DNA of 64,000 bases, taken from a virus. The position numbers and the translations under genes were made by a program. The notes under the pieces are model-generated. The model saw only the letters and a list, made by a program, of their open reading frames with translations, made no database searches and was not told the origin of the DNA. The stretch is from the IMG/VR virus record IMGVR_UViG_3300002180_000002. One strand, 5' to 3'. The number at the start of each line of letters is the position of its first letter. Within the stretch, counting starts at the first letter, position 1. This document shows positions 7,386 through 62,470 of the stretch, one piece after another.

Positions 7386-7766
7386 ATGGATAAAAAACAA
7401 GCAAACGCTAAATATTCCGACGGAAGAAGGAATGTAGAATTTAATGTTTCAATTTTTTTATGGGAAGAAGATTCTATTTTTTATGTTTATTCTCCAGCTC
7501 TAGACTTAACAGGATATGGAATATCTAAAGATGAAGCTAGAGAATCTTTTGAAACTGTTTTGCACGAGTTCGTAAAATATACTCACAATAAGAAGACAAT
7601 ATTTCAAGAGTTAGAAAACCTTGGTTGGGCTGTTAATAAGAGAAAAAAGAGAGTTGTTTCTCCTGATTTTGAGGATATGCTTTCTGAAAATGAACATTTC
7701 AAGCATTTATATAAATCCAAAGATTTAGTGAGAGATTCGTCTAATGTTAATTTAGAACTCGCATAA
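7386..7766 (+). CDS. hicB: HicB-like antitoxin
   Basis: EFNVSIFLWEEDSIFYVYSPALDLTGYGISKDEARESFETVLHEFVKY fits the HicB/UPF0150 N-domain pattern. Directly followed by a HicA-like ORF. Confidence 0.6.
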   Translation: MDKKQANAKYSDGRRNVEFNVSIFLWEEDSIFYVYSPALDLTGYGISKDEARESFETVLHEFVKYTHNKKTIFQELENLGWAVNKRKKRVVSPDFEDMLSENEHFKHLYKSKDLVRDSSNVNLELA

Positions 7767-23018: not shown

Positions 23019-26000
23019 ATGGACGAATTAGAAAAATTATATAACGGACTTATAGAATCAGGTGATTACACAAAATCATTTGAGGATTTTAAATCAAAAT
23101 ATAGCACTGATGAAAACATAACATCGTTGTATAATGGTTTAAATAGTACAGGTGATTACACAAAATCTAAAGATGAATTTGTGAATAAATATTTTTCTAC
23201 GCCAGTAAAAAAAAAAGGAGATACTATCGAGACTTCGGGTGTGTCAGAATCGGTTGGTTCACTACCTCAAACAAAGTCAGCTTCTTCGGAATTGCCTTCA
23301 AATCAAGGAGCAAGCATTAATTCATCAACCGCACCTACGGTAGCTAATCTTAATAACGGAAAAACAAATAGTGATATTCCATTTTTTCAACCTATTCCAA
23401 AAGAACTACAAGGGGATAACAAGGAAAATATAGACCTGCTTAATGAGTTAGAAAACATAACTCTATCAGAAGATGAATTAGCAGGTATTGAAGAAGAATA
23501 TAATAAACAAAAAGGTGGGGATTTTGGTTTTTTAGGAAATATTAAAAAAGCGATCACCTCAACACCTGCTTTTGGCATAAAGAAAAATCCTTTTTTTAAC
23601 CCTAATTCTGTTACACCTAAAAGCAAAGAAGAATTAACTGAAAAACTTCTTAATGAAAAAAGAACAGAATTTATATCAAATTTAGATAAAGGTAAAAAGG
23701 AAAAGCTAACAGACCTAGTAAAGGTTAAAAATTTCCGTGCTGATTTAAAAAGAGAAAATTTAGAAGTTGAATTAGATAATATTGATGAAAATCTTTTTAA
23801 GATAAAAGAGAATGTTGAAGCTATTGATGCTGAAATATTAAGTATTGAAAATCAAAAAACAGCTTTAAAAACAAAAGTTAAAAACGAAGGTCTTACCCCT
23901 CAAGATGAAAATTCTTATAATAGTTTAATTGATGCTCAACAAAAGTTTTTAAAAGAGAGAAACAACGCAGTTGAAGGTTCTGAATCTATTTTTACAAACA
24001 GGATAGAAAAAATCAATCAGCTTGAAGATAATATTGAGAACTTAGGCTCAATGGAGCAAGAACTTGATTTATTAAAAAGAAATTACGGTTTTTTTGATAA
24101 TGTAAAAGGGAGAGCAGGAATTGGTTTTGCAGATATGTTTGCTAATGTAAAATATCAATATGACCGTCAAATTTTACGATCCAAAAGAAAAAATATTAAA
24201 AATCTTTTAGAAGCAAGAGAAAATTTATTTACTAAAGGATTAAATACATCTGCCATTGATAAGGAATTACCCGCAGAATATAGAGTTAGGACATTTCAAT
24301 ATGATTCGGAAGAATTTGATATTGAAACTGAAAATGAGTTTAATAAATTACTTTCTTCTAATTTCACAAACAAAAGAATTGTTGACGAACAAAGAGATAA
24401 ATTACGCTCAAACATTTCTGTAGATGATATTAATAGTTTCGGTGATGTAATTAACTTTACTGTAGACGGATTATCTGATAATACAGCGACTATAGCTCAA
24501 CTTGCCATTCCTTATTTCGGACAATCACTTTTTTTAATTAACCAACAGGCAGGAAGTGAATTAGATTTAAAGGGTGAGAATAAAGATAAAAAAGAACGCT
24601 TGAATGAAATCGAAAAAATTTTTGATAATGATTCAGGTAGTATTGTTAATTTTTCTGATTTAGGTGAAGAAGAACGAAATTTACTTTTAAGTGAACAAGA
24701 TCGTATTTCTAAATCTTTAGATAACTTAAATGATACTCAAATATTTTTTGCTTCAAGTTCCATGGCGATTTCTGAATTAGCTTTTAGTAGACTATTTGGT
24801 GAAGCAAAAAGAATTAAAATTGGTAAACGTATATTACAAAACGCAGGGAAAGAAGAATTAAAAAGAGAAGTAAATAGAGCTACCGTAAATATGTTTAAAG
24901 ATAGGTTGTCTTCTTTAAAAAAAGGAGGGATTGCCGTACTAAAAGATGGAGCAGAAGAAGGGTTTTTAGATGAATTCCTTACTAATTTCACTCACAATGG
25001 AATTAGAAAGTTTTATTTAGAAGATGAATCTGTGGGGCTATTTGATAACTCTATCGATGCTATAGCAGGTGGATTATCTGTGGGTACTGTTATGTCTGCT
25101 TCCCCTAGAATTGGAGGTAGTTTTATAAGTCATTTTTCAGACAGAAAAAAAAGAAACGCTGTTTATAGTAATGTTAAGGAAATCACAGAGCTTCAAAATC
25201 AATTATCTACAAATATTGATATTGACGCAGATTTAGCAGGTTTAATGCAAAATAAAATTAATAACCTTATTTCTAAAAATAAAGAAATTATAGGAAGAAC
25301 TATAGAAAGCTTTGATAATCTTGATCCAATCGATAAAGAGAGAATACTTACTATTTCTAATGAAATGGCAGGACTTGAAATTTCTTTTGATAAACTAACA
25401 AATAAAAAAAATAAAACTTCTTCTGAAAAAACCCTACTTAGTGAGATCGGCGACAGAATGAATATTCTTAATGAAGAAAAAGGACAAATATTAGATCAAC
25501 CTGTTTTTGAGTCCACTGTTTCAGAACAAACTAAGGAGTTTGCGGATGCTATTGGGGAACAAGAAGATATATCTCAATTTGTTACAGGAGCAACTAAAGT
25601 TAAGATAGGTAATACTGATGTTATATTAGGCGAAAAAGAAGGCGTTATTAATATAGAAAGTATAAGCACGCCAAAAAACCAAAGAGGTCAAGGGAGCGCT
25701 CGTAAAGCTATCCAAGAGATTACTGAATTAGCAGACGAGAAAGGTAAAGATTTGCGCTTAAATGTAGTTCCACTTGATAATACAACAACAGAGAAAGGTC
25801 TTATTAAGTTGTATGAAGAAGTAGGATTTGTTAAAGATAAAGATTTTGATAAAGATGATGGAGGGATTATGATGCGTAAGCCTGAAACTACTGATACCGA
25901 CACTAAAAAAGGTCTTGATAATATAGATACTGTTATAGATGAAGCGGAAACCTCAATAGAAAATGAAGCGATTCCTAAATTAAAAGAATCTGCTGAAAAC

Positions 26001-29000
26001 TTATCGTTTGATGAATGGAAAAATGAATCTAAAAAATGGGATGATTATACAGATAAATTAAGTGATAAGGTGCAATCCTTTGAAAAAGGAGAATTAGGAT
26101 TATCAAAAAGAACCCCTGAATTTTTAGAAGCGAAAAAAGAATTTGACAATGCTTTTCGCCAACAGCAAAAATTTAATAAATCAACTCCTAAAGGATTCGG
26201 AAGAAGAAAATTTCAAGAAAAAATAGATAAAGCAAATCAAAAAAAGAAAGAACAAAAATCAACTACTGAATTTGAAACTAATCTTAACACATATTCCGTT
26301 GAAGTTGTTAATGGAGAATTACAAATAAAATCTAAATTAGGTGATGTAAAACCTAGTGTTTCTGAAATCAAAAAAATAACTGAAAAGTATGTTTCCGAAA
26401 CTAATTTTGATAAAGGAAAAAGAGCTGATTTTTCTAAAAAAGAAAATTTATCTCCTGAACAAATATCGCAAGTTGTAGTTGAGGAAAGTCAAAATCCTCA
26501 AGAAGTAGCACAACAAATAATTTCAGTACAGGATTCAAATCAAGATTCGGAAAAAACCTTAGAAGTATCTAAACAAGGTGCTATTTCTCAAGCACTTAAT
26601 GGAGTGCAAATAAATAAAGAGAGCTTCTCTAAAGTTGACGACGCAAACAATATTTCAAGCGTAAATCCTCATTACTTTAGTCCTTTACATAAAACATTAA
26701 AAGGAAAAGCAGGAAATATTGATGCTATTAGAGAATCAGCACAAGAACTTACGGGAGAAGATATTTCACTTGAAGACATTACTAACTTCATCAAAGAATT
26801 TAATAACCCAAAAGATTTTTCACAATCAGAAACATCAAACACTTCTGACCTTGAAGATAAATTTAAAGATTTAACTGGATTAAAACCAACACCTAAAAAC
26901 ATTGAAAAAGTCGCAGGTAAGAAAACCGAATCAAAACAAAAAACAGAAGGAGAAGAAGATTCAGAAATTCCTTTCCAAACAGAAAGTACACAAACAAGAT
27001 TAGCAGGTTCAGAACTTATAAGCCTTATTGATAGATTAAAAAAGACAGGGTTAGCAAATGATGTTAAGGTTCTTAGTAACAATCAAATAATCACTCTTTT
27101 AAATAAAATAGGTGTTGAGAATACGCAACAACAAAACATTAATGGATTTGTACACGATGGAATAGTTTATCTTAATAGAAGTAAAGTTAAAAAAGACACT
27201 CCTATTCATGAATTTGGACACTTATGGAATTCTTTCGCAAAAGAAAATCATAAAGATGTTTTCAATAAAGGGATTGAGATTATAAAAGATACGGAATACC
27301 ATGAAGCTGTTAAAAATAATCCTGCATACAAAAACCTCAATGAAGAAGCACAGCTTGAGGAAGCATTAGCTCAAGCTATTGGAGAAAAAGGAGTTAAAAT
27401 ATTAAATGAATCTAAAAAAACAAAATTCGCTTCTTGGTTCAAAGCATTATTTACAAAAATCGCAAAAGGATTAGGAATCAGAAGCTTTAATGCTAATCAA
27501 TTAGCGAACCTTACTCTTGATAAATACACAAATTTAGTGAGTGGAGAAATTTTAAGTGGAAAACAAATTACCAATAAAAATAAAAAAACTGAAAAATCAC
27601 GACAAGATACTTCTGATATAACAAGTATTGAGGTTGTTATGGCAGAAGCTATTGCTTCACAGAACGCATCAAAAATATTACGCCAACAAATAAATAATAA
27701 AAAAGCTATTGACAAAGCAGTTAAAGACGCTTTAGTAAAATTTATTAGAGATCAAATCAAAAGCAAAAGATTTAATGCTTTAAAAAAAGGCGAGTTTTCT
27801 AAGATACTTACTGCTGTAAAAACTACTAAAACAAAAAATGATTTATTAAAACAACTTAAGAAAGTTGATGATCTTTTAGATCGACTAGATAGTGAAATAA
27901 TTAATGATAATATTAATAATATCCTTGACAGAAAATTAACTAAAATCGAAAGTGGTCGCCAAAAAGCTAATCTTCTTACAGAGGAAGAATCTATTATTCT
28001 TAAAACGGTTAAATCTAATATTAAAGGTCTTCAATCCACTAAAAAACCTACTCAAAAAAAATATAATGCTATAACAGAAAAATTAGCAAAACTGTTTGAT
28101 AATAGAGACGAAATACAATTAAAAACCGAGCCTAGTCGTGAAGATGTATTAAATGAAGAAGCTATTAATATCTCCATAGATGTTTTAATGGGATATAGAA
28201 GCGCTTTAAATTCTGACACAAAAAAGTTTTTACTAAGTAGTCTTGAACAAATTGAATCTATTTATAACCAAGGAAGAAGCCAATTAATTTCAGCAAAAGA
28301 AGCAAAAGCAAACGAATACAAAGATTATAGAGACGAATTAGTAGAAGACACTAATCCTGATGAATTAGTTCAGAAAAAAAGAAAAGAACAAGTTGATAGT
28401 AATCGTGAAGGTGTTAAAGCTGATTTCGCTAGACTTTATTTTAATATTACCAAAAGAAAATTAATTGGTAGTATGGACAGGCTAGCTACTGTATTATCAA
28501 GAAAAGGAGCGGGCAATCGTAATGATAGTGCGTGGGTTCAATTTACTAATTTACTAAAAAGAGCAGAAACTCTTAAAGAAAGAAGAATAGGAAGCTTATC
28601 TAAATCTATTACTAATATTCAAAAACGTTTTTTTGGAAGTAGATATAAAGCAGATAAAATGCTTAATACAAGAGAAAAACTTGATATTATTTTACCTGAC
28701 CCTACACTTGAGGAAGGTCAAGAGCCTTTAACAACACAAACCGATTTCACTTACGATGAAATGCTTTCTGTTTGGTTAAATGCTAAAAATGAAGATAATC
28801 TTTCAGGTCTTGAAGCAAATGGATTTACAGAAGACGTTATTAAAAAAATAGACGATATTCTTCCTGAATCAGTTAAAGAGTATGGTAAATGGCAAGTTGA
28901 AGAATTTTATGAAGACTCATGGGAAGATGAAAATGAAGTTTACAAACGTATGAATTTCCACACTTTACCAAAAAGTGAGAATTATGCAGGGAAATTATAT

Positions 29001-30671
29001 AGAGGTAATGTTGATTTAGATATAGACACCGAAGCCCTTAATAAAGGTAAAGGTACTCTAAGAACAACAGCTCATGGTAGTCAAAAAATCAGAACTAAGA
29101 ACTCAAAGCCTATTATGGCAGTTCCTACCACTTTTTTAATGAAAAAGCATATTACCGACACTTCTCATTATGTTGCATTTGGTGAAATACACCAAACAAT
29201 GACTAAGTTAATAGCTGATAAAAAATTAACTGATGCTATTGATGTTACTAATCCTCTTACAGGTGATCTAGCTGTTAAGTTTCTTAAATTTTATAAAGAA
29301 AGTATCTTAGAAAAAGGACTTCATAGAGGTTATCCTATAGTTAATTCGATTGCTAAGAATATAAATAAAGCTACTCTTGCATTAAAAACAAAAATTGGTA
29401 TTACCCAAACTATATCTATTTTAAATGCTTCTGTTGATATGCCAAGTGGGTTAAGCCCTAATAAGTTTTTAGGATATTATGCTGACTTCCCTAAACTTAT
29501 AGAATCTTATAAATACGTCGTTAATAATTCTGAATACATTAAAAGAAGATATGGGAAAGAAGGATTCGACCAAGCTATAACAGGTCTTTCAACACTTATT
29601 GAAACTCCTATGTTTAGTACTGGAAATAATACTGTTGACGCTAGAAGAAAGCAAATAGCTAGATTTTACAAAGAAGCACTTGATAATGCTATGATTAATG
29701 TACGTTTTGGTGATAAAGTTGGTGTAATGGGCGCATTACCAGTTTATAATGCGTACTACGATAGATACAAAAAAAGATATTCCGAAGAAGTTGCTAGAGA
29801 AAAAGCAATGAAACAATTTGAAGACGCTGTAGATAGATCACAACAAACTATATCTACTTTCGGGAAAAGTGAACTTCAAAATGACCCTATAGGAAGGTAT
29901 TTTGCCATGTTTGCAACCGCGCCTATTCAAAATCAGCAAAACGCGATGTACCACTTCAATGAAATGCGTAGAGGTATTAAGGGTAAGGGTATGAAAGGAA
30001 CTTATTTGAAAAATGCTTATGGTTTTTTAAACTACCAATTTGCACAACCTATGCTGTACACATATATTGCTAATATGATGGCAGGTAGCATATTTAAAGC
30101 ACTTGGAGCAGGAGAAGAAGAACCTGATGATACTGATAAATCTATGTTGAGTGCATTTATTTTAGGTAACACAACAGCTATTCCTTTTATTGGTGGAGCT
30201 ATGCAAGGAACGGTTGAGAAGTTTATTCTTGGAATGGATAAATCATACGGCGAAATAGTTTCCAGTGCTTTATTAAGTAATTCTTCTGAATTTATGAAGA
30301 AATTTTACGAGATTGCAGATGCAAAGTCTAAAAAAGAAGAAGTTGCTAAAACCGAAGAAATGATTCAAGAGGTTAGTAGACTTTTAATTGGGTTTCCTAC
30401 CATCGTTTCAGAAGCTATTTTTGATTGGGATGATATTTACTGGAATGATGATGTAGATAATTGGGTGAAATTCTATAAAGCACTAGGATATAGTGATTAT
30501 ACTATTGTTAAATCTCGAAGACAAAGAAAAACGAGAGTGCAAAGTGATAAATTGAAAGAAGCTGAAAAAAGAGAATGGGAAAATTCTATAATTCGATGGG
30601 AAAAACAGAATAAACAGAAAAAAACAGAGCCACTTTTTAAGTTGCTCCCTGAACAGAAAAAACGGAAATAA
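23019..30671 (+). CDS. giant multidomain virion protein (2550 aa) with internal GNAT-like segment and HExxH motif
   Basis: Uninterrupted 7.65-kb ORF. Contains QRGQGSARK...LYEEVGFV (about 25567-25885), HEFGH (27207-27221), long coiled-coil-like K/E-rich stretches, and hydrophobic segments near the C-terminus. Confidence 0.6.
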   Translation: MDELEKLYNGLIESGDYTKSFEDFKSKYSTDENITSLYNGLNSTGDYTKSKDEFVNKYFSTPVKKKGDTIETSGVSESVGSLPQTKSASSELPSNQGASINSSTAPTVANLNNGKTNSDIPFFQPIPKELQGDNKENIDLLNELENITLSEDELAGIEEEYNKQKGGDFGFLGNIKKAITSTPAFGIKKNPFFNPNSVTPKSKEELTEKLLNEKRTEFISNLDKGKKEKLTDLVKVKNFRADLKRENLEVELDNIDENLFKIKENVEAIDAEILSIENQKTALKTKVKNEGLTPQDENSYNSLIDAQQKFLKERNNAVEGSESIFTNRIEKINQLEDNIENLGSMEQELDLLKRNYGFFDNVKGRAGIGFADMFANVKYQYDRQILRSKRKNIKNLLEARENLFTKGLNTSAIDKELPAEYRVRTFQYDSEEFDIETENEFNKLLSSNFTNKRIVDEQRDKLRSNISVDDINSFGDVINFTVDGLSDNTATIAQLAIPYFGQSLFLINQQAGSELDLKGENKDKKERLNEIEKIFDNDSGSIVNFSDLGEEERNLLLSEQDRISKSLDNLNDTQIFFASSSMAISELAFSRLFGEAKRIKIGKRILQNAGKEELKREVNRATVNMFKDRLSSLKKGGIAVLKDGAEEGFLDEFLTNFTHNGIRKFYLEDESVGLFDNSIDAIAGGLSVGTVMSASPRIGGSFISHFSDRKKRNAVYSNVKEITELQNQLSTNIDIDADLAGLMQNKINNLISKNKEIIGRTIESFDNLDPIDKERILTISNEMAGLEISFDKLTNKKNKTSSEKTLLSEIGDRMNILNEEKGQILDQPVFESTVSEQTKEFADAIGEQEDISQFVTGATKVKIGNTDVILGEKEGVINIESISTPKNQRGQGSARKAIQEITELADEKGKDLRLNVVPLDNTTTEKGLIKLYEEVGFVKDKDFDKDDGGIMMRKPETTDTDTKKGLDNIDTVIDEAETSIENEAIPKLKESAENLSFDEWKNESKKWDDYTDKLSDKVQSFEKGELGLSKRTPEFLEAKKEFDNAFRQQQKFNKSTPKGFGRRKFQEKIDKANQKKKEQKSTTEFETNLNTYSVEVVNGELQIKSKLGDVKPSVSEIKKITEKYVSETNFDKGKRADFSKKENLSPEQISQVVVEESQNPQEVAQQIISVQDSNQDSEKTLEVSKQGAISQALNGVQINKESFSKVDDANNISSVNPHYFSPLHKTLKGKAGNIDAIRESAQELTGEDISLEDITNFIKEFNNPKDFSQSETSNTSDLEDKFKDLTGLKPTPKNIEKVAGKKTESKQKTEGEEDSEIPFQTESTQTRLAGSELISLIDRLKKTGLANDVKVLSNNQIITLLNKIGVENTQQQNINGFVHDGIVYLNRSKVKKDTPIHEFGHLWNSFAKENHKDVFNKGIEIIKDTEYHEAVKNNPAYKNLNEEAQLEEALAQAIGEKGVKILNESKKTKFASWFKALFTKIAKGLGIRSFNANQLANLTLDKYTNLVSGEILSGKQITNKNKKTEKSRQDTSDITSIEVVMAEAIASQNASKILRQQINNKKAIDKAVKDALVKFIRDQIKSKRFNALKKGEFSKILTAVKTTKTKNDLLKQLKKVDDLLDRLDSEIINDNINNILDRKLTKIESGRQKANLLTEEESIILKTVKSNIKGLQSTKKPTQKKYNAITEKLAKLFDNRDEIQLKTEPSREDVLNEEAINISIDVLMGYRSALNSDTKKFLLSSLEQIESIYNQGRSQLISAKEAKANEYKDYRDELVEDTNPDELVQKKRKEQVDSNREGVKADFARLYFNITKRKLIGSMDRLATVLSRKGAGNRNDSAWVQFTNLLKRAETLKERRIGSLSKSITNIQKRFFGSRYKADKMLNTREKLDIILPDPTLEEGQEPLTTQTDFTYDEMLSVWLNAKNEDNLSGLEANGFTEDVIKKIDDILPESVKEYGKWQVEEFYEDSWEDENEVYKRMNFHTLPKSENYAGKLYRGNVDLDIDTEALNKGKGTLRTTAHGSQKIRTKNSKPIMAVPTTFLMKKHITDTSHYVAFGEIHQTMTKLIADKKLTDAIDVTNPLTGDLAVKFLKFYKESILEKGLHRGYPIVNSIAKNINKATLALKTKIGITQTISILNASVDMPSGLSPNKFLGYYADFPKLIESYKYVVNNSEYIKRRYGKEGFDQAITGLSTLIETPMFSTGNNTVDARRKQIARFYKEALDNAMINVRFGDKVGVMGALPVYNAYYDRYKKRYSEEVAREKAMKQFEDAVDRSQQTISTFGKSELQNDPIGRYFAMFATAPIQNQQNAMYHFNEMRRGIKGKGMKGTYLKNAYGFLNYQFAQPMLYTYIANMMAGSIFKALGAGEEEPDDTDKSMLSAFILGNTTAIPFIGGAMQGTVEKFILGMDKSYGEIVSSALLSNSSEFMKKFYEIADAKSKKEEVAKTEEMIQEVSRLLIGFPTIVSEAIFDWDDIYWNDDVDNWVKFYKALGYSDYTIVKSRRQRKTRVQSDKLKEAEKREWENSIIRWEKQNKQKKTEPLFKLLPEQKKRK

Positions 30672-31024
30672 TGATTGATTTTGACTACAAGCAGAGATTG
30701 GAAGACCATATTTCTGCATTAATAAGTGCGTATGATAAACAAATACTTCTCCTAAATAGAGATTTAGCTAAAAAAGAAGTTAAAGACAATGAACCTGACA
30801 AAGAAGAACTTAAAATTACGGATGCTCAAGTAAAAAGTTTTTCAGAAGGAATTGCTAAGTCAGCAGAAACAGCTAATACTTTACTAAGAGACATTAAATC
30901 TAAAATTCAAGAGCTTGACGAACTAGAGAAAAAAGAAGATGAAAAATCTTCTGATAAAGTTAAAAAACCTCAACAAAAAGAAGATGAAACTTCTAATAAT
31001 CCTATGAACGATAACGTATCATAA
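30671..31024 (+). CDS. small acidic coiled-coil protein (possible small terminase subunit)
   Basis: 117-aa ORF with ATGA/TAATG coupling to both neighbours, directly upstream of TerL. Assigned by position only. Confidence 0.3.
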   Translation: MIDFDYKQRLEDHISALISAYDKQILLLNRDLAKKEVKDNEPDKEELKITDAQVKSFSEGIAKSAETANTLLRDIKSKIQELDELEKKEDEKSSDKVKKPQQKEDETSNNPMNDNVS

Positions 31025-33357
31025 TGGAAAGAGACACTAGCTATAGAGGAAGAATTGGAGAAAAGGTAAAAATAGAATCTATTATACCTAAATCTACTTA
31101 CGATAAAAAGAATAAAGAACATTCTTGGGAATATCGAGAATATCCTGAATTCAATGATAATTTCGTTTGTATATCTCAAGACGGAACTCTTGGGGATATT
31201 TGGAAAGTAGGAGATTATTTAATTGGCTTACCTAATCACTCACTACAAGGTTTACGAATAAAACAAAGTGGAACTGAAATCACAAAAAATTATTTTGATA
31301 AAAAAATAGTAAATAAAGATGTTGAACCTAATGAAGCAAAATGGGTAAGAAAACCACCTCCTATAGAATTCAAAAGACTTTGGAATTGGTATAAACGCGA
31401 AATGAAGCGTAATAAAAGTGGAGTTGGTAGAACTAAAGTTAAAAAAGATTTTCTTACTAAAAGACAAGAACTTTATAATGAGTTTAACGAATTTATTCGT
31501 GATGAATATTTTAAACGAAAATTTGGAATGTTCATTAAAATCGATAACGAAACCCATTATATCACAGGAGCTAATTGGATGTTTCTGCAACATTATTACT
31601 TAACAGAATCAAATATATTTCCTTTATTTCGTGTTACAGCTATGGAAACATGGTGGCACTGGGAAGCGTGTAAGGCTGATACCCGTGTATGGGGTGAAAT
31701 TAGAGGTAAAGCACGTAGAACAAGTTGGTCTGTTGAATCAGCAAGTTTAGCACTTGACGAACTTACAATCACTAAATATGCAGAGATTCCTATTGTTTCT
31801 GAAAGAAAAGACCTTGCTAAAAAATTATTTACTGGTAAAATAGTAAATTCCTTTAATTACTATCCTTTATATTTTAAACCTGTTATTGATCTTCCGAATG
31901 AAGAAGTGAAAAGTAGTTTGCAAATTACTTTTGAGACAGATGATATGGAAATATCCACTATCGATTATTACCCTACAAAGACAACTGCATACGATAGTTT
32001 GAAGGTAAAATATTTCTCGATAAATGATGAAATAGGAAAATGGGAAGATGCAAGTCTTACTGATTTCATCACTAGGCACATGAGGTGTCATACAGAAGGA
32101 GGTGCTACTGGAAGATTTGGAAGTACGGCAGGAGAATACAAAAAAGGTGGAGGAAAAGAATTTAAAGATGAATTTGAAAAAGCTGATATAACACAAAGAA
32201 ATAAGCTTGGAAGAACTCAAAACGGTCTAGCTTCTTTATTTATAGATGTTTGCTATACAATGACCCAACCTATAAGTTATTTTGATGAATGGGGTTATTC
32301 TATTGTCTATGACCCTAAAGAGCCTATTAAAAATGAAATAGGTAAAATAGTTGAACATGGGGCTATAACAGATTGGCAAATTACTTTTGATACATATAAA
32401 AAATTAGACGACAAAAAAAGTTTAAATGCTTTTCTTCGAGATATGCCTAGAACTCCTGAACACATGTTTAGAAATGAAGGAGGAGTAAATAATGATTTTG
32501 AAATTGATAATTTAAACAATCATGTAGATCATTTAGATAAGTACACTCCTGATATGTTAAATGAAAGAATCATTTATAGAGGAAACTTAGCTTGGTCTGC
32601 TGAACCTTACAATTCAAATGTAGTTTGGAAACCAAATCCAAAAGGTAGATTTCACACAACATGGATTCCTGACCCTGACAAACAAAATAAACATTCAATA
32701 AAATTATTTTACGGAAGAAAACTACAAACACCTGATAATCAAGGTATTGGATGCTTTGGAGTTGATAGTTATGATATTATAGGAAATACAGGAGACGGTA
32801 ATGGTTCAGATGGAGCTATTGCAGGATATACTAACTTTAATATGGCAGGTGCGCCCTCACATTCTTTCTTTTTAAAATATAAAGAAAGACCTAATAAAAG
32901 GGATGATTTTTACGATGATGTAATTATGGCTTGTCAGTTTTGGGGTTTTAATGCTTTAATTGAAAGTAACAAAGCAAGGCTTCTTGAGTATATGTATGAT
33001 AAAGGATTTACAGGATATGTTCTGCGTCGTCAAGATAAACCTTACAATAAATTAACTGATGCTGAACAAAAGTGGGGAGGAATCCCAAGTTCTACGCCAG
33101 TAATAGAAGATCAAATGAATCTATTAAAAAATTATATATTTGATAACGTAGGAATTAATTTAGAAGACGATTGTAAAGTTTGGTTTATTGATTTAATCCA
33201 AGAATGGATTGACATTAATCCTAACAAACGTAAGCTATTTGATTTAGGAGTTGCTTCGGGTATGGCTATCATGGGCGCTCAATATAAAGTAAAAAAAAGA
33301 AAGTCTGTTGAAATATCTCAAAAAGGAGGTTTAGCAATGTCTGACTTTTCAGCTTAA
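31024..33357 (+). CDS. terL: terminase large subunit
   Basis: IRGKARRTSWS (Walker A-like) and YFSINDEIGKW (Walker B hhhDE). Nuclease-type acidic motifs GCFGVDSYD and GSDGAIAG. Confidence 0.65.
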   Translation: MERDTSYRGRIGEKVKIESIIPKSTYDKKNKEHSWEYREYPEFNDNFVCISQDGTLGDIWKVGDYLIGLPNHSLQGLRIKQSGTEITKNYFDKKIVNKDVEPNEAKWVRKPPPIEFKRLWNWYKREMKRNKSGVGRTKVKKDFLTKRQELYNEFNEFIRDEYFKRKFGMFIKIDNETHYITGANWMFLQHYYLTESNIFPLFRVTAMETWWHWEACKADTRVWGEIRGKARRTSWSVESASLALDELTITKYAEIPIVSERKDLAKKLFTGKIVNSFNYYPLYFKPVIDLPNEEVKSSLQITFETDDMEISTIDYYPTKTTAYDSLKVKYFSINDEIGKWEDASLTDFITRHMRCHTEGGATGRFGSTAGEYKKGGGKEFKDEFEKADITQRNKLGRTQNGLASLFIDVCYTMTQPISYFDEWGYSIVYDPKEPIKNEIGKIVEHGAITDWQITFDTYKKLDDKKSLNAFLRDMPRTPEHMFRNEGGVNNDFEIDNLNNHVDHLDKYTPDMLNERIIYRGNLAWSAEPYNSNVVWKPNPKGRFHTTWIPDPDKQNKHSIKLFYGRKLQTPDNQGIGCFGVDSYDIIGNTGDGNGSDGAIAGYTNFNMAGAPSHSFFLKYKERPNKRDDFYDDVIMACQFWGFNALIESNKARLLEYMYDKGFTGYVLRRQDKPYNKLTDAEQKWGGIPSSTPVIEDQMNLLKNYIFDNVGINLEDDCKVWFIDLIQEWIDINPNKRKLFDLGVASGMAIMGAQYKVKKRKSVEISQKGGLAMSDFSA

Positions 33358-57254: not shown

Positions 57255-57295
57255 GAAACTCCTGATTGTCATGATTCAGGAGTTTCGTCTTTTTT
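57255..57295 (+). terminator. hairpin terminator at the convergence point
   Basis: GAAACTCCTGA...TCAGGAGTTTC (11 bp) followed by GTCTTTTTT. It overlaps the 3' end of the leftward gene. Confidence 0.55.
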
Positions 57296-57694
57296 AGAGG
57301 TAGGGTTATAAACCTTCACTATGTAGAGCGGGTTCAATATGAAGTAAAATTTAAAAGGAGTCTCAAGAAGTAATTTAAGATCAGTGAATTTTTTTTTAGT
57401 TTTATAAAAAGCGCTTTCACCACATATATCCGCATAATCATTATACCGAAAATACAACCCACCGCTTTCAACAGGATTATGTGAGCCTTTAATGTTTGTT
57501 AGCATACGTTCCCATACACGGTAATCGTTTAATGTGAATTCCCTTTGTTTTATATCGGTAAGTAAAATAGAGTGCTTAAAATATCCTCGTAGGCTTTTAT
57601 AATACGAAAATGATATACCACTAATTGTTGAGGTTTTTTTTATATTATAGTAGAAGTCCTCTACCCAATTAATAAGTTTTTCGTTATCGGTCAT
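57269..57694 (-). CDS. hypothetical protein
   Basis: 141-aa ORF, the last gene of the leftward block. Confidence 0.5.
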   Translation of the reverse strand: MTDNEKLINWVEDFYYNIKKTSTISGISFSYYKSLRGYFKHSILLTDIKQREFTLNDYRVWERMLTNIKGSHNPVESGGLYFRYNDYADICGESAFYKTKKKFTDLKLLLETPFKFYFILNPLYIVKVYNPTSKKDETPES

Positions 57695-57893
57695 TGATAG
57701 TAACGGAATAATCTTTCAAAATAATATCTAAACCATCTATAGAATTATCTGAAAGAATGTTTTTTAATCCAACATCGTTGAGGTACGCAGGAACAGTCCA
57801 TTGATTTACTGAATAATCGACATAACGTAATCGATAACGAACTTTACTATGTCCTTTTATAATCGCCAGTATTGTAGTTTCAAATCTTTCCAT
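57684..57893 (-). CDS. hypothetical protein
   Basis: The ATG at 57893 (MERFETT...) is preferred over the longer alternative-start track ORF. Confidence 0.4.
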   Translation of the reverse strand: MERFETTILAIIKGHSKVRYRLRYVDYSVNQWTVPAYLNDVGLKNILSDNSIDGLDIILKDYSVTINDR

Positions 57894-57991
57894 CCTAAAA
57901 AAATGCACCGCGAAACAGGATAACGTCAAGGTAATTTAAACCTATCTAATAAACTGTATGACGGTGCATACCATTATTTCTATCTTACTAG

Positions 57992-58063
57992 AAGCGAGAA
58001 AGGGAATCGAACCCTTGCATAGCGGTTTTGCAGACCGCCGTGTTTCCACTTCACCATTTCGCC
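57992..58063 (-). tRNA. tRNA-Cys (anticodon GCA)
   Basis: Reverse complement: GGCGAAA-TG-GTGAAGTGGAAACAC-G-GCGGT-CTGCAAA-ACCGC-TATGC-AAGGG-TTCGATT-CCCTT-TCTCGCT-T. It forms a cloverleaf with discriminator U73. The acceptor stem has one A:C mismatch and one G:U pair. Confidence 0.7.
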
Positions 58064-58393
58064 TTATTTATAATAACCATACTTTATTTTATCACCTATT
58101 ATAATTTGAGATTTACTTTTTAAAGGTCTATATTTTGTAGAAAAAATAGTTTCTTCACCATCACAAATATCCGATAATAGTTCATGGAATTTATCAATTT
58201 GTTGTTGATCGCCATGAACAGTAAATTCTTTCGGGTTATTTTGTATCTGTGCAAAAAGACCATCAGTTCCTTCAAAAGGTGCTTCTTCAACAACTATAGG
58301 TTGAGGTTCGGATTTAGCAGAAAGCAATATTGGAGCAACTGCGACCACGCCGACAGACAACCCTAGTCTTTTTATAAATTTTCTCCTATTCAT
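58064..58393 (-). CDS. small exported protein with twin-arginine signal
   Basis: MNRRKFIKRLGLSVGVVAVAPILLSAKS carries the RRxF(I/L)K Tat motif plus an h-region. Its stop abuts the tRNA-Cys. Confidence 0.55.
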   Translation of the reverse strand: MNRRKFIKRLGLSVGVVAVAPILLSAKSEPQPIVVEEAPFEGTDGLFAQIQNNPKEFTVHGDQQQIDKFHELLSDICDGEETIFSTKYRPLKSKSQIIIGDKIKYGYYK

Positions 58394-58453
58394 TACTAAA
58401 ATATTCTTTTAGTTCTTTTTCAATTTCATCTGTCAAATTAAATACATTACCCA

Positions 58454-58711
58454 TCATTCCTGTAGAGTATAGTAAACAAATCCATCACGTTTATACCAAT
58501 CACTACGTCTACGTACAGTATTATTAAATACCTCTAAACAGCCAGTTAAATACTGCGCCAATATAAAATCAGGAGTATCACTACCGTTCTCTTGAGAGTG
58601 CTTATTCAACAACCCTTCCAACTCCTTTTCAAATATTGAAACTCCTTCAACATCAGGAAACCTTTTCATTTTTAATTTCCAATCCAATTCATTTTCTGCT
58701 TTTTCTGCCAT
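58454..58711 (-). CDS. hypothetical protein
   Basis: 85-aa ORF. Confidence 0.45.
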   Translation of the reverse strand: MAEKAENELDWKLKMKRFPDVEGVSIFEKELEGLLNKHSQENGSDTPDFILAQYLTGCLEVFNNTVRRRSDWYKRDGFVYYTLQE

Positions 58712-58713
58712 AT

Positions 58714-58866
58714 CTATATATATTCAGTATTACAATTCACACAACTATAAATTGGCATATCGCCAAAAGCATCATGACAATTATCATTCACCATCGGAGC
58801 ATCGCAACACGTACTTCTCAACACGAACAACTCCAAAAAAGAATCGAACGCACGGATCATAAACAT
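58714..58866 (-). CDS. small Cys-rich hypothetical protein (50 aa)
   Basis: Read by hand: MFMIRAFDSFLELFVLRSTCCDAPMVNDNCHDAFGDMPIYSCVNCNTEYI. It fills the gap between neighbouring genes. Confidence 0.3.
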   Translation of the reverse strand: MFMIRAFDSFLELFVLRSTCCDAPMVNDNCHDAFGDMPIYSCVNCNTEYI

Positions 58867-58886
58867 TTCAATACTCAAGCACATAA

Positions 58887-59159
58887 TTATCTTCCTGATA
58901 TTAATACCTCACCATGTAATCCACTTGTATTAATATGTATTTCAGTAAAATCTAAAATATCCTCATGAACCCTAACATTTGATTTTGTTAGATTTTCAAA
59001 AAAACGAGTTATCTTTTCCTTAAACATTTCAGCACTCTCTAATTTTTCCTCTAGTTCATTATACGTTTCCACACTTAAAACTACTTCCTTAACAGGTATT
59101 TTAAACTCCTTAGCCATTCTTTCTGTTTTAAAAACCCTCCCGCCGTTTCTAACCATCAC
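58887..59159 (-). CDS. hypothetical protein (first leftward gene)
   Basis: 90-aa ORF. Confidence 0.45.
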   Translation of the reverse strand: MMVRNGGRVFKTERMAKEFKIPVKEVVLSVETYNELEEKLESAEMFKEKITRFFENLTKSNVRVHEDILDFTEIHINTSGLHGEVLISGR

Positions 59160-59253
59160 TAGGTCTGTAACAACCTCAACAGGAGGGTAAAATTAATTAT
59201 TAACATAAAAACTTAAACACTTTATGAAAAAAGTATTACCATTCATTGTAGCC

Positions 59254-59261
59254 CAAAGGTA
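59254..59261 (-). promoter_or_regulatory. candidate leftward -7 promoter element (TAccTTTG on the minus strand)
   Basis: The plus strand reads CAAAGGTA, about 95 nt upstream of the minus-strand ATG at 59159. Confidence 0.3.
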
Positions 59262-59264
59262 CAC

Positions 59265-59328
59265 AAAAAACTGCACACAGGAATAGTATTTGCCACTTTT
59301 TTACGAAAAAACTCCACATAGGAATAGT
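59265..59328. repeat. two 23-bp direct repeats, 41 bp apart
   Basis: AAAAAACTGCACACAGGAATAGT (59265-59287) and AAAAAACTCCACATAGGAATAGT (59306-59328), 21/23 identical. Confidence 0.7.
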
Positions 59329-59452
59329 CTTTTTTTGACGCAACAAGCTGACACACAACTATATAACCCCTAAAACACACAAATCTATATTATAGTTATA
59401 TATATAATTACAACACAAGCACACAAAACACGTCTCCGTAACAACCCCGTAG

Positions 59453-59466
59453 CCGTTTACAAACGG
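59453..59466. repeat. CCGTTT-AC-AAACGG palindrome
   Basis: 6-bp arms. A near-identical copy lies at 60117-60130. Confidence 0.6.
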
Positions 59467-60101
59467 ATAATTCCCGCAACGATTCGTTGAGGTTCACGAT
59501 CACACAACACCAAAAAAAAAGCCAAGCTACTGCGCAGGCGACTACAACCATATTTTGCACACCTGTCTACGCCACGGCTTAGCAGTGGGTGTGGCGCGTG
59601 TTTGTCGCGAGGGGAAACCGTTTGGTTTACCCCCTCCCCTTGTATTTTCGCGGGCGTGCCTTCAAAACTTTTCGCTTTTTGTGTACGCTGTTTTTGGGCG
59701 TGCGGTTGACAAGCTATTCTGTAGATAGTGTTGAGGTTGCGCTCCGTTGAGGTGAATCAGTTTGACGTGTCAGGGGAAACGCTATTTTGCGCGCTTCTGC
59801 TGTGCGTACTCTTTTGCGTGGCGTGTGTACCTCAACGCGAGGGAATTCGTGTGAATGGTGCGCTCCTGCTTGTTGTGGTTGCGTTATTCGGGAGCGAGTG
59901 TACCATTGTGCGCGCTGTTGCGCTCTCCTGCTGTGATTCTGTGCGGAAAGTGTACACTTACACTTGTGTACGTGCGTGCGCTAAGAGCGGGAGCGGTTAA
60001 GCTGTTTGCGTGTTGGTGTTGCTTTGTTGTTGCGGTTGGTAGTGTGGATGGGTTGCGGGTGTAGATTGTGTTATATGTACGCGCGCGCGGGATTTGTTGC
60101 G

Positions 60102-60130
60102 TACAAACGTTTGTAGTCGTTTACAAACGG
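60102..60130. repeat. adjacent palindromes TACAAACGTTTGTA and TCGTTTACAAACGG
   Basis: Perfect 14-bp palindrome (60102-60115) followed by a copy of the 59453-59466 site. Confidence 0.6.
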
Positions 60131-60255
60131 CTAGCGGTGGTGTGATGGTGTTTTATGGTGTAGATTTATTGCATTGTGCTTATGTCGTGAGTGTGAGTGT
60201 TTTCGGGGTGTTGTGTGTTGGTGTTGAAAATAAATGTATTTTTCTTTCTTAATTG

Positions 60256-60286
60256 TTTGGTATATTCAGAAAGATATGTATATTTG
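60256..60286 (+). promoter_or_regulatory. rightward early promoter (TTTG - 19 nt - TAtaTTTG)
   Basis: Both the -33 and -7 Bacteroidetes consensus elements are present with canonical spacing, 24 nt upstream of the ATG at 60311. Confidence 0.55.
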
Positions 60287-60310
60287 TAGTGGATTTAAAC
60301 AATATATATT

Positions 60311-60592
60311 ATGACATTTACAAACAAACTTAGATTATTATTTTTAGTAGTGATTCTTTTCGGCTTCACTTATTCAGCAACGGCGCAAGAACCTGCGTAC
60401 AAAATTGTAGGCAGTGAGATAGTTAAGACCTCAACGGAGCGCGTGAAGGTTGCGCCAGTGAAGACAGAATACACTCATACGATTAAGGGTGTAGTTTATC
60501 CAGTGTACAAAGGTGCGAAGGGTGGCTACTTCATTAAGCGCGTGAGCAAGAAGACGGGCAAGGAATACAAGCAGTATTTAAAACTCGACTAA
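60311..60592 (+). CDS. secreted basic hypothetical protein
   Basis: Signal peptide MTFTNKLRLLFLVVILFGFTYSATAQ. Confidence 0.5.
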   Translation: MTFTNKLRLLFLVVILFGFTYSATAQEPAYKIVGSEIVKTSTERVKVAPVKTEYTHTIKGVVYPVYKGAKGGYFIKRVSKKTGKEYKQYLKLD

Positions 60593-60594
60593 GC

Positions 60595-60654
60595 GAGGTT
60601 AAACAGGCATTAGGCTTAGAGCGTCCGCACTACTTTGGTGCGGGGTTGTAACAA
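60595..60654 (+). promoter_or_regulatory. intergenic repeated hairpin element, copy 1
   Basis: TTAAACAGGCATTAGGC...AGCGT-CCGCAC-TACTTTG-GTGCGG-GGTTGTAACAA, ending 17 nt before the next ATG. Confidence 0.55.
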
Positions 60655-60671
60655 TCTTAAAATTAATTATC

Positions 60672-60782
60672 ATGACTTCATTATTACCTTTATTAACTAT
60701 CGTTTTTATTATTGCTGTTGTTTCATTGGCTGTTAAATATGGTTTCACAAACGGAGCGCGAAGTTCAACCCTTAAACATTAA
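60672..60782 (+). CDS. small hydrophobic peptide (36 aa)
   Basis: MTSLLPLLTIVFIIAVVSLAVKYGF... has a single TM segment. Read by hand. Confidence 0.35.
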   Translation: MTSLLPLLTIVFIIAVVSLAVKYGFTNGARSSTLKH

Positions 60783-60865
60783 TTAACTCCCTACTTGCTT
60801 GCGTGCTGTAGTACGATGCTACCTTTCAAAAGGGCGCAAGCAACTAATAACAAAAAATATTTATC

Positions 60866-61162
60866 ATGAAAGTAAACGCTATAACAAAATATATCTTTAA
60901 AGGTAAAGAGTATAATTCCTTACAAGAGATAAAAGAAGAAATACATAATACTATTGGTTTAGAAGTATTGGATAAAGTTTCTAAAACTTGCCCACTTGAA
61001 AAACACAAAGACTATTTTAAATTATTAGAATTATTGTGTAGTAAAGAAGTCAGAGAAATTTTAACAGAATGTTTTAACGTAAATTTTGACGAACCTATTA
61101 CAGATTATGACGATAATTGTTTCAATGAAAACACTAAAGAAATTAATGTTTTAGATATATAA
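60866..61162 (+). CDS. hypothetical protein
   Basis: 98-aa ORF preceded by a 9-bp-stem hairpin (60795-60803/60835-60843). Confidence 0.45.
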   Translation: MKVNAITKYIFKGKEYNSLQEIKEEIHNTIGLEVLDKVSKTCPLEKHKDYFKLLELLCSKEVREILTECFNVNFDEPITDYDDNCFNENTKEINVLDI

Positions 61163-61176
61163 GTCGGTCGGGCGAC

Positions 61177-61240
61177 ATTAAACAGGCATTAAGCCCGAAG
61201 CGTTGCGGACGATTTCTCCCTAGTCCGCAGGTTGTAACAA
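61177..61240 (+). promoter_or_regulatory. intergenic repeated hairpin element, copy 2
   Basis: ATTAAACAGGCATTAAGC...AGCGT-TGCGGAC-...-GTCCGCA-GGTTGTAACAA, ending 19 nt before the ATG at 61260. Confidence 0.55.
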
Positions 61241-61259
61241 CAAAATAAATAATAATATC

Positions 61260-61973
61260 ATGACAACAAAAACAAATTATTACAACAATCAATTAAAAGC
61301 AGTTAGTAAGAAAAGTAATTTCGCGCCTACTATTGTATTAAGCAACGAACATGGAAAAACTAATTACATGGATGTAAACGAAGAAAGCGCGCCTGTTTTT
61401 ATAGAATGGCTTTCACAATTTAAAGCACCACCAACAACACAAGAACTTGAAAGAGAATTAACCTCTAATACTGAAACTTGGGTTAATAAATCATTTAATT
61501 TTATTCAAAAAGACGTTTACGAAAAAACTTTAGAGTGTGGATTGTACGAGTATATAAGACAATCAGAGCAAGACAACGATTTTTATAGTGATTATTTTGA
61601 TAATTACGGACTGTGGGATGAATTTAAGCAGTATTTAAAAGATAATGAAGAAGAAGACAGCGAAGAAGTAAGAAAAACATTTTCAGAAGATGAAACAACC
61701 TCTTTCGATAGTTATGTAAACGACCAAGAGCAAGACAATTACCCGATGTGGAATACTTTATTTGAATTTAGAAGCGAACCTTCCGAAGAAATAATACAAT
61801 CTTGTATAGATGCAGGATTCGGAATTATAGAAGGAATGGACGACTTTAATACGACTCTTTTCGTTAGTGGTTGCGGGTATTCTTTTTACGCTCAACATTG
61901 GATGCCTCTTTGGTTAAGTCTTCCATATACTGACAACGAAAAATATAAAAACACAAGTTATTCACATCTTTAA
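61260..61973 (+). CDS. acidic hypothetical protein
   Basis: 237-aa ORF with D/E-rich middle and a conserved-looking C-terminus (PMWNTLFEF...GCGYSFYAQHWMPLW). Confidence 0.5.
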   Translation: MTTKTNYYNNQLKAVSKKSNFAPTIVLSNEHGKTNYMDVNEESAPVFIEWLSQFKAPPTTQELERELTSNTETWVNKSFNFIQKDVYEKTLECGLYEYIRQSEQDNDFYSDYFDNYGLWDEFKQYLKDNEEEDSEEVRKTFSEDETTSFDSYVNDQEQDNYPMWNTLFEFRSEPSEEIIQSCIDAGFGIIEGMDDFNTTLFVSGCGYSFYAQHWMPLWLSLPYTDNEKYKNTSYSHL

Positions 61974-62389: not shown

Positions 62390-62410
62390 TTGAAAGAGGT
62401 TGCGACCTCT

Positions 62411-62470
62411 TAAAAAAGGTTATTAAGTCGCAAGCGTTCCCGCTCATATTGGGCGGGAGGTTAACAACAA
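62411..62470 (+). promoter_or_regulatory. intergenic repeated hairpin element, copy 3 (diverged)
   Basis: AAAAAGGTTATTAAGTC...AGCGT-TCCCGC-...-GCGGGA-GGTTAACAACAA, ending 12 nt before the ATG at 62483. Confidence 0.5.

Follow-up and report, generated by a model that had tools for sequence, protein, structure and literature searches.

The DNA analysed here is a 64,000-nt stretch of the IMG/VR virus record IMGVR_UViG_3300002180_000002, which we refer to as the window. At positions 59160-60310, it contains a gene-free region which separates a leftward from a rightward gene block and within which the strand composition switches. What does this region represent? The preliminary description, made from the sequence alone, had considered a replication origin, the packaging or terminal-repeat region of a circular assembly, or long G/U-rich RNAs made by a non-host polymerase. 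We consider it likely that a linear podovirus genome with terminal redundancy has its two ends here, abutting in a circular-looking assembly. A terminal repeat is the most likely reading based on boundary and positional homology to a relative with read-called ends, Tenacibaculum phage Gundel_1, and on a molecule end in another relative. Synteny with the Gundel_1 repeat, the boundary motifs, and this molecule end thus support the second of the three proposals. The predicted subdivision is as follows, with a caret marking each boundary.

59160-59580: predicted right-end sub-terminal unique non-coding DNA (plus strand A 0.39, C 0.24, G 0.13)
59578-59585: left boundary motif CTT^AGCAG, with 59581 as the predicted first base of the virion genome; coincides with the composition switch
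59581-59982: predicted short direct terminal repeat (DTR) of about 402 bp, placed by boundary homology to Gundel_1 (G+C 0.53, G+T 0.65)
59980-59987: right boundary motif GCT^AAGAG, with 59982 as the predicted last base of the repeat
59983-60310: predicted left-end sub-terminal unique non-coding DNA (G+T 0.72, C 0.085)

Relatives of the phage

Judged by the terminase, Tenacibaculum phage Gundel_1 (Pachyviridae, Gundelvirus; NC_062747.1) is the closest relative in culture. In a tblastn search, the TerL encoded at 31024-33357 was 58.9% identical along its entire length to that of Gundel_1. A crAss-like identity, considered on the basis of PHROG hits and a 2550-aa open reading frame (ORF), was dropped after the terminase search, and there was no likeness to phage phi14:2.

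Further relatives were found with the first rightward ORF, which codes for 93 aa and has homologues in the protein database, in IMG/VR, and in metagenomes. Five metagenomic relatives (L007, L008, L010, L012, and L136) have the same arrangement, in which 0.9-1.4 kb without any called gene come after a leftward gene block. The equivalent non-coding stretch has zero called genes in L010 and L136. In L007 and L008, the repeat-equivalent stretch is uncalled, and small ORFs are called only nearer to the homologue of the 93-aa ORF. The comparison with related phages that had been suggested in the preliminary description shows that the region is conserved as short blocks. These are found across the whole core in two alignments (A2 and A3), and the core is homologous block by block in six relatives.

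Correspondence to the terminal repeats of Gundel_1

The Gundel_1 record has identical 322-bp short DTRs at positions 1-322 and 78512-78833. These ends were predicted with PhageTerm (PMC8776804), which infers phage ends from read-start pile-ups. The order in Gundel_1 is tRNAs, a leftward block (gp107-gp100), 301 nt of non-coding DNA, the DTR, 727 nt of non-coding DNA, and rightward small ORFs. Its DTR is placed syntenically with the region in the window, and the two genomes are collinear in their coordinate offsets (TerL 16868, NinG 19609, DTR start 18931). When the Gundel_1 ends are joined via one repeat copy, this reproduces the switch from C/A-rich to G/T-rich sequence, a conserved block termed block A, and the copies of the 8-mer GTTGAGGT (see below for both). 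The segment 59160-59580 of the window aligns with the pre-DTR segment of Gundel_1 and of the five metagenomic relatives.

The repeat boundaries were transferred with a 7-way MAFFT alignment of the window, Gundel_1, and the five metagenomic relatives (1929 columns, 483 of them ungapped). The DTR start of Gundel_1 falls on the most conserved of all 8-column intervals (score 0.93; 59578-59585 in the window), and its DTR end falls on the third most conserved one (score 0.84; 59981-59988). The left boundary reads CCT^AGTAT in Gundel_1, CTT^AGCAG in the window, and CTT^AGTAG or GTT^AGTAG in the others, so that (G/C)(C/T)T^AG(T/C)A is common to all seven. The right boundary reads GCT^AAACA in Gundel_1 and GCT^AAGAG in the window; here, (C/T)(C/T)T^AA is common to all seven (AAG in six, AAA in Gundel_1). 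Boundary transfer results in predicted repeats of 322-402 bp across the seven phages. The predicted repeat is present in one copy only in the window and in the two contigs that extend it (L138 and L152), as expected of a collapsed assembly.

The window thus resembles Gundel_1 in gene order (tRNAs, a small leftward block, about 1.2-1.35 kb of gene-free DNA, and rightward small early ORFs), in having both repeat boundaries on shared motifs, and in carrying a pistol ribozyme in the early operon. It differs in the length of the predicted repeat (402 vs. 322 bp) and its G+C content (0.53 vs. about 0.35). The flanking small genes are non-homologous, with the exception of NinG. Gundel_1 is devoid of an exact 23-nt dyad found in the window and has only a related sequence, CCGTTTGTA...TACGG, just before its repeat. 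Finally, the Gundel_1 ends were called from reads whereas those of the window were placed by homology.

As a separate observation, the collapsed junction of Gundel_1 contains, at about 1330-1350 and upstream of gp001, the sequence ...GGGGCTTGTTGAGGTTCGATTCCTTTGC... with a tRNA T-arm-like GGTTCGATTCC. For this GGTTCGATTCC in the left sub-terminal non-coding DNA, there is no tRNA annotation and no Rfam report at the gathering threshold.

An adapter-capped contig end in a related phage

The Logan contig L153 (1,627 nt) is from a phage close to L008. It starts with AGTGGTATCAACGCAGAGTACT, which is the 3' part of the sequencing-library adapter AAGCAGTGGTATCAACGCAGAGTACT (PMC12613986). The adapter is joined directly to AGCAGGGTTTTTTGCG..., which is homologous to CTT^AGTAGGGTTTTTCGC of L008, and the base to which it is fused is homologous to position 59581 of the window. 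The right boundary is predicted at position 390 of L153. The probability that a random fragment end falls on this base is about 1 in 1,600. As read from the contig sequence, the adapter junction marks a physical molecule end at the predicted first genome base in this relative.

Contig ends in IMG/VR are enriched near the homologue of the 93-aa gene, which is suggestive; these loci are from distant relatives. One such contig was inspected (L011) and begins inside coding-like sequence.

Base composition and its switch

The region was originally described as the most G+C-rich part of the window, with a change from C/A-rich to G/T-rich, A-poor sequence at about 59560-59580. Both statements were borne out. 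The G+C content reaches its maximum here (0.536 per 500 nt, compared to a window mean of 0.310 with a standard deviation of 0.037). The maximum of G+T (0.706 vs. a mean of 0.478) and the minimum of A (0.13) are in the same region. On the plus strand, 59260-59560 has A 0.39, C 0.26, and G 0.12 while 59560-60230 has A 0.14, G 0.335, and T 0.35, with the switch at about 59580 (59560-59590). The switch is present in the contigs of all 7 other relatives that were examined. The high G+C content is limited to the window phage (50-55% over the predicted repeat plus about 130-150 nt on each side), the equivalent regions of its relatives having 33-42% G+C.

It had also been claimed that the outer parts of the region are imperfect inverted copies of each other, and this proved not to be specific. 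When the left arm is aligned locally with the reverse complement of the right arm, the best score is 18, dinucleotide-preserving shuffles of the arms score 17.4 +/- 2.8, and 123 of 300 shuffles reach or exceed the real score. The same outcome was obtained for four relatives. The apparent inverted arms are due to the mirror-image composition of the two sides.

Two further sequence features were encountered. An alternating CG run, ACGCGCGCGCGG, is located at 60080-60093 in the left sub-terminal DNA of this 31% G+C genome and has Z-DNA potential. A perfect 15-nt inverted repeat (59739-59753, GCGCTCCGTTGAGGT; 60428-60442, ACCTCAACGGAGCGC), with a chance expectation of roughly 1e-3, has one arm in the predicted terminal repeat and the other within the coding part of the first early ORF. 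It could reflect long-range pairing or an antisense relation, if the leader is transcribed.

Proposed arrangement of the genome ends

Phage T7 has genome ends with a short DTR, site-specific cutting of concatemers, and arrays of short repeats in the sub-terminal DNA; this description reportedly goes back to Dunn and Studier in 1983 and to later packaging work. By analogy, 59581-59982 would be a short DTR which is present at both ends of the virion DNA and has collapsed to one copy in the assembly. Unique sub-terminal DNA would lie on both sides of it, that of the right genome end at 59160-59580 and that of the left end, leading into the early genes, at 59983-60310. The divergent gene layout would then consist of two inward-facing terminal transcription units with host-type promoters in the sub-terminal DNA. 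In replicating concatemers, one repeat copy would link successive genomes. The terminase or an associated nuclease would cut site-specifically at CTT^AG(T/C)AG and (C/T)CT^AAG, and the repeat would be duplicated by strand-displacement synthesis during packaging.

The likeness to T7 extends to a predicted exact terminal repeat of a few hundred base pairs, to non-coding sub-terminal DNA that is strongly strand-biased and of low complexity, to early genes and host-type promoters beside the left end, and to nearly all genes being oriented from left to right. Different from T7, the window has a small inward-facing gene block at the right end, and its mechanism of cutting and repeat duplication is taken from the T7 paradigm. 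Sequence or protein homology to T7 was not seen, although no test was aimed at it.

The window and an identical 81.6-kb ENA contig are permuted, being broken at different places. This is to be expected of a terminally redundant genome that assembles as a circle. Two public contigs, L152 (window coordinates -6023 to 6552) and L138 (to 73909), extend the genome to about 80 kb. When closure of the circle was attempted over -6023 to 73909, the two ends had no overlap. The cumulative GC skew of the approximately 80 kb, when rotated to start at 59581, rises monotonically to a maximum at the convergent point near 57.4 kb, which fits a T7-like left-to-right linear map.

Several points weigh against a placement of the genome ends in this region. 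A DTR shows itself by roughly twofold read coverage and by pile-ups of read starts, whereas the ends of the window phage were placed by homology. The Gundel_1 ends from which they were transferred are a PhageTerm prediction without experimental verification (PMC8776804). The window and Gundel_1 have little identity in their non-coding DNA, so that the mapping rests on short blocks in a gappy alignment (483 of 1929 columns ungapped). The adapter-capped end belongs to another phage and concerns the left boundary only. In principle, it might stem from a shear fragment that was duplicated by PCR (polymerase chain reaction). The long contigs of relatives have no break at the site equivalent to 59581. 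Finally, the G+C-rich island (about 59440-60150) extends past the predicted repeat, and its limits are marked by two copies of the 23-nt dyad. Given this wider island, the true repeat of the window phage could be longer than 402 bp.

A replication origin

A bidirectional origin, or a transcription- or R-loop-primed start at the switch, would explain the outward G/T-rich strands as the footprint of displaced strands. We regard this as unlikely. It is favored by a local minimum of the cumulative GC skew, by a pure A+T tract of 28 nt (59385-59412), by six copies of the 8-mer GTTGAGGT/ACCTCAAC within 59173-60435, and by the prototypic crAssphage, where a strand-switch locus has been proposed as origin and DTR region (PMC10983915). 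However, the skew increases monotonically along about 78 kb, and the leftward block of 2.2 kb is the only part in which it reverses. It thus tracks gene orientation and provides no independent origin signal, so that the whole-genome skew analysis proposed in the preliminary description does not lend support to an origin. There is also no adjacent initiator gene among the genes found, a search for iterons confined to 59160-60310 was negative, and the conserved motifs sit on the repeat boundaries rather than on a repeat array. An origin could coexist with genome ends.

The 8-mer itself is not an origin-specific iteron. It is enriched genome-wide (19 sites in the window vs. 1.07 expected, 6 of the 19 being those mentioned above) and linked to the coding strand, ACCTCAAC being mostly on this strand with an orientation that flips with gene direction. 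In the phage group, including Gundel_1, L007, L010, L012, and L136, GTTGAGGT/ACCTCAAC is 10-30x over-represented. The predicted repeat holds two copies of GTTGAGGT (59730 and 59746) and one of ACCTCAAC (59829). Some relatives have one of these copies at the same position (L007 exactly, L010 with one mismatch). The 8-mer could act as a signal in RNA or as a polar signal in DNA.

Long non-coding RNAs

Long G/U-rich non-coding RNAs could run outward from about 59580 and be made by a virion or other non-host polymerase. A precedent is phage phi14:2, which produces abundant rightward long non-coding RNAs (lncRNAs), early and persistent, in long intergenic DNA close to its homologue of g001 (bioRxiv 10.1101/2020.03.07.982082). 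The 2550-aa ORF (23019-30671) could code for a putative virion polymerase, and, by eye, some relatives have a TTAGTA-N15-TATAAT-like arrangement after the left boundary motif. We also consider this explanation unlikely. The -10-like element is not kept in the window. An Rfam scan of 58000-61500, which covers large phage RNAs such as GOLLD and ROOL, found nothing at E <= 1 inside the region. RNAalifold, applied to alignments A2 and A3 (5-6 relatives), predicted no pairs in 7 of 10 alignment-window/strand tests, and the remaining ones gave -0.8 to -0.9 kcal/mol. Folding of 59430-60240 resulted in z-scores of only -1.1 and -2.1 for the two strands.

Like crAss-like phages, the window has long non-coding DNA beside homologues of the small early ORF g001 of phi14:2. 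The lncRNA region of phi14:2, however, is not G/T-rich, does not match the profile of the core, and has no sequence similarity to the window. The terminase of the window phage groups with those of Pachyviridae-type flavobacterial podoviruses. Because the terminase is nearest to that of Gundel_1 and similarity to phi14:2 is lacking, the lncRNA analogy was abandoned. Transcription of a leader is possible and compatible with a terminal repeat.

A 23-nt dyad and the question of a mobile insertion

The G+C-rich island is bracketed by two copies of a dyad.

59447-59469: degenerate copy of the dyad with 4 mismatches (fuzzy search; alignment A3)
60111-60133: exact 23-nt dyad/hairpin TTGTAGTCGTTTACAAACGGCTA (TTTGTA-N6-TACAAA), within 60100-60135 and with the palindrome ACAAACGTTTGT just before it

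The degenerate copy is located 112 nt ahead of the predicted repeat, where the relatives have a conserved block (block B). The exact copy, 129 nt past the predicted repeat, is inserted in comparison with close relatives, in which the 23-nt dyad is not found. The exact 23-mer also occurs in otherwise unrelated viral contigs (L001 at 7441-7463, equal to L018, and L005 at 156-178). The dyad is, in addition, listed for the viral contig L004.

The G+C-rich core might accordingly be a small foreign mobile element, with the dyad copies as attachment-site-like or hairpin ends. The bracketing positions and the occurrence in unrelated contigs would agree with this, but we consider it very unlikely. The core is homologous at the same region of six relatives without dyads, and such conservation in blocks argues that it is not an insertion. 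The left dyad substitutes for a conserved block rather than flanking an insert. Further copies of the core were not found either, as an exact 24-mer from the switch point had no match in IMG/VR and the region had no blastn match among GenBank phages.

The dyad is probably a host operator that was borrowed by phages. In seven Bacteroidota genomes (L140, L143-L147, and L149, including Formosa, Flavicella, and Chryseobacterium), its 18-nt core lies upstream of a short ssb gene, at a distance of 117-157 nt. This gene is divergently transcribed, codes for 110-112 aa, and matches the Pfam SSB domain with E = 5e-26. About 17 matches to the 18-mer are expected by chance, so that the total of 11 is unremarkable, but the ssb context common to the seven genomes is not due to chance. 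The Bacteroidetes SOS box (CTAA-N5-TTAG; PMC8565304) was tried as an explanation; it does not match the dyad, nor does it match the conserved blocks B and C.

Unannotated coding sequence

That the region might consist of small ORFs or be read with an alternative genetic code is hardly credible: there are plus-strand ORFs of 90, 69, and 57 aa on the A-poor strand, but each of the six frames has 11-20 stops of all three kinds, so that reassignment of one stop would not open any frame. The longest ORF has 90 aa and the longest open stretch in any frame has 99 codons. None of the seven ORFs submitted to Pfam (41-90 aa) had a match above threshold, and gene calling on the identical ENA contig placed no gene in 59160-60310, in accordance with the initial view that credible coding is lacking. 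The uncalled equivalents in L010 and L136 (entire stretch) and in L007 and L008 (repeat) agree with this, and the conserved blocks are short and separated by indels which are not multiples of three.

Predicted sub-terminal DNA

If the genome ends are placed as proposed, the mirror-image composition implies that, past the repeat, the strand with the terminal 5' end is G/T-rich at both genome ends. The segment after the DTR of Gundel_1 reaches a G+T content of up to 0.83, and the segment past the repeat is likewise G/T-rich in L008, L010, and L153. Taken to the extreme, the 5'-ended strand would be almost purely G+T and the 3'-ended strand almost purely C+A at each end. A strand consisting of only C and A, or of only G and T, cannot pair with itself. 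One may speculate that single strands of this type would suit ejection, exonucleolytic resection, ERF/SSB-mediated annealing of repeats, or repeat duplication; the phage encodes ERF and SSB. That the sub-terminal DNA is built for the biology of the ends rather than being a passive spacer is a doubtful proposition. Through the dyad copies that flank the predicted repeat, a host DNA-binding factor could be brought to the ends of the genome. As an alternative, the conserved AG(T/C)AG end could double as a start site for end-initiated early transcription.

Promoters, small motifs, and flanking genes

The genes and motifs on both sides of the predicted repeat are as follows.

57269-59159 (approximately), minus strand: leftward inward-facing gene block at the right genome end
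57991-58063: tRNA-Cys, within the leftward block
58887-59159, minus strand: first leftward ORF (ORF list; 76 aa as called on the identical ENA contig), outermost on the linear map
59254-59261, minus strand: Bacteroidota-type -7 box CAAAGGTA (TACCTTTG on the minus strand), proximal to the leftward ORF (pattern scan)
59265-59291 and 59306-59332: two 27-nt direct repeats, 89% identical (repeat search)
59362-59392, minus strand: conserved block A, AACCCCTAAAACACACAAATCTATATTA (alignments A2, A3, and 7-way)
59379-59386, minus strand: second leftward -7 box, TAGATTTG, inside block A (pattern scan)
59385-59412: the 28-nt pure A+T tract, after block A
60256-60286, plus strand: Bacteroidota-type promoter TTTG-19 nt-TATATTTG for the first early ORF
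60311-60592, plus strand: first ORF on the rightward (early) side, 93 aa, with which relatives were found

The host-type promoter motifs previously noted at 59254-59261 and 60256-60286 are both present as described. The former is kept in L010 as TATCTTTG, with a -33 TTG at a spacing of 20 nt. The second copy of the 27-nt direct repeats is also partly kept in L010, and these repeats are possibly a regulatory site for the leftward promoter. Block A ranks fourth and fifth among the conserved 8-column intervals of the 7-way alignment. A scan for sigma-70 promoters and terminators found none above shuffle expectation. The sequence CTTAGTAG was considered as a repeated promoter motif and rejected, being essentially unique per genome. 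The N-terminus of the 93-aa ORF, as judged by eye, resembles a signal peptide.

Pistol ribozymes (Rfam RF02679) were found on the plus strand of the early operon of the window (60583-60650, 61162-61236, and 62395-62465), and each begins at most 10 nt from, or at, the stop codon of a small ORF. Four of the relatives that were scanned also have matches: L008 (6290-6359), L007 (6276-6342 and 10488-10559), L012 (5563-5637), and Gundel_1 (L151, 2564-2642). The scores are 54-70 bits, compared to a gathering score of 34.5. This suggests that a polycistronic early transcript is processed by pistol ribozymes.

Genes for ERF recombinase, SSB, YopX, Gad2-like, GmrSD_N, and HNH proteins are encoded on the extensions, and Tad6-like and HAD_PNKP genes are located at 53-56 kb of the window. 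The flank genes are a recombination and anti-defence set typical of lytic flavobacterial podoviruses. The 2550-aa ORF is located among structural genes and could code for a giant virion or ejection protein or for a virion RNA polymerase.

Implications

Genome ends with DTRs are a known and fairly ordinary kind of feature; what is new here is the conserved pair of end motifs for Gundel-like phages. The likely physical ends would provide the correct linear map for an uncultured marine flavobacterial podovirus and for at least five metagenomic relatives. The pair CTT^AG(T/C)AG ... (C/T)CT^AAG, with its members 320-400 bp apart, is a candidate end-formation signal of Gundel-like Pachyviridae and may be used to orient and trim metagenomic assemblies. 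More generally, when a circular-looking phage contig has a conspicuous intergenic region that is divergent, G+C-rich, and marked by a switch in skew, this can be the place where two genome ends were joined in assembly, and need not be an origin or an RNA gene.

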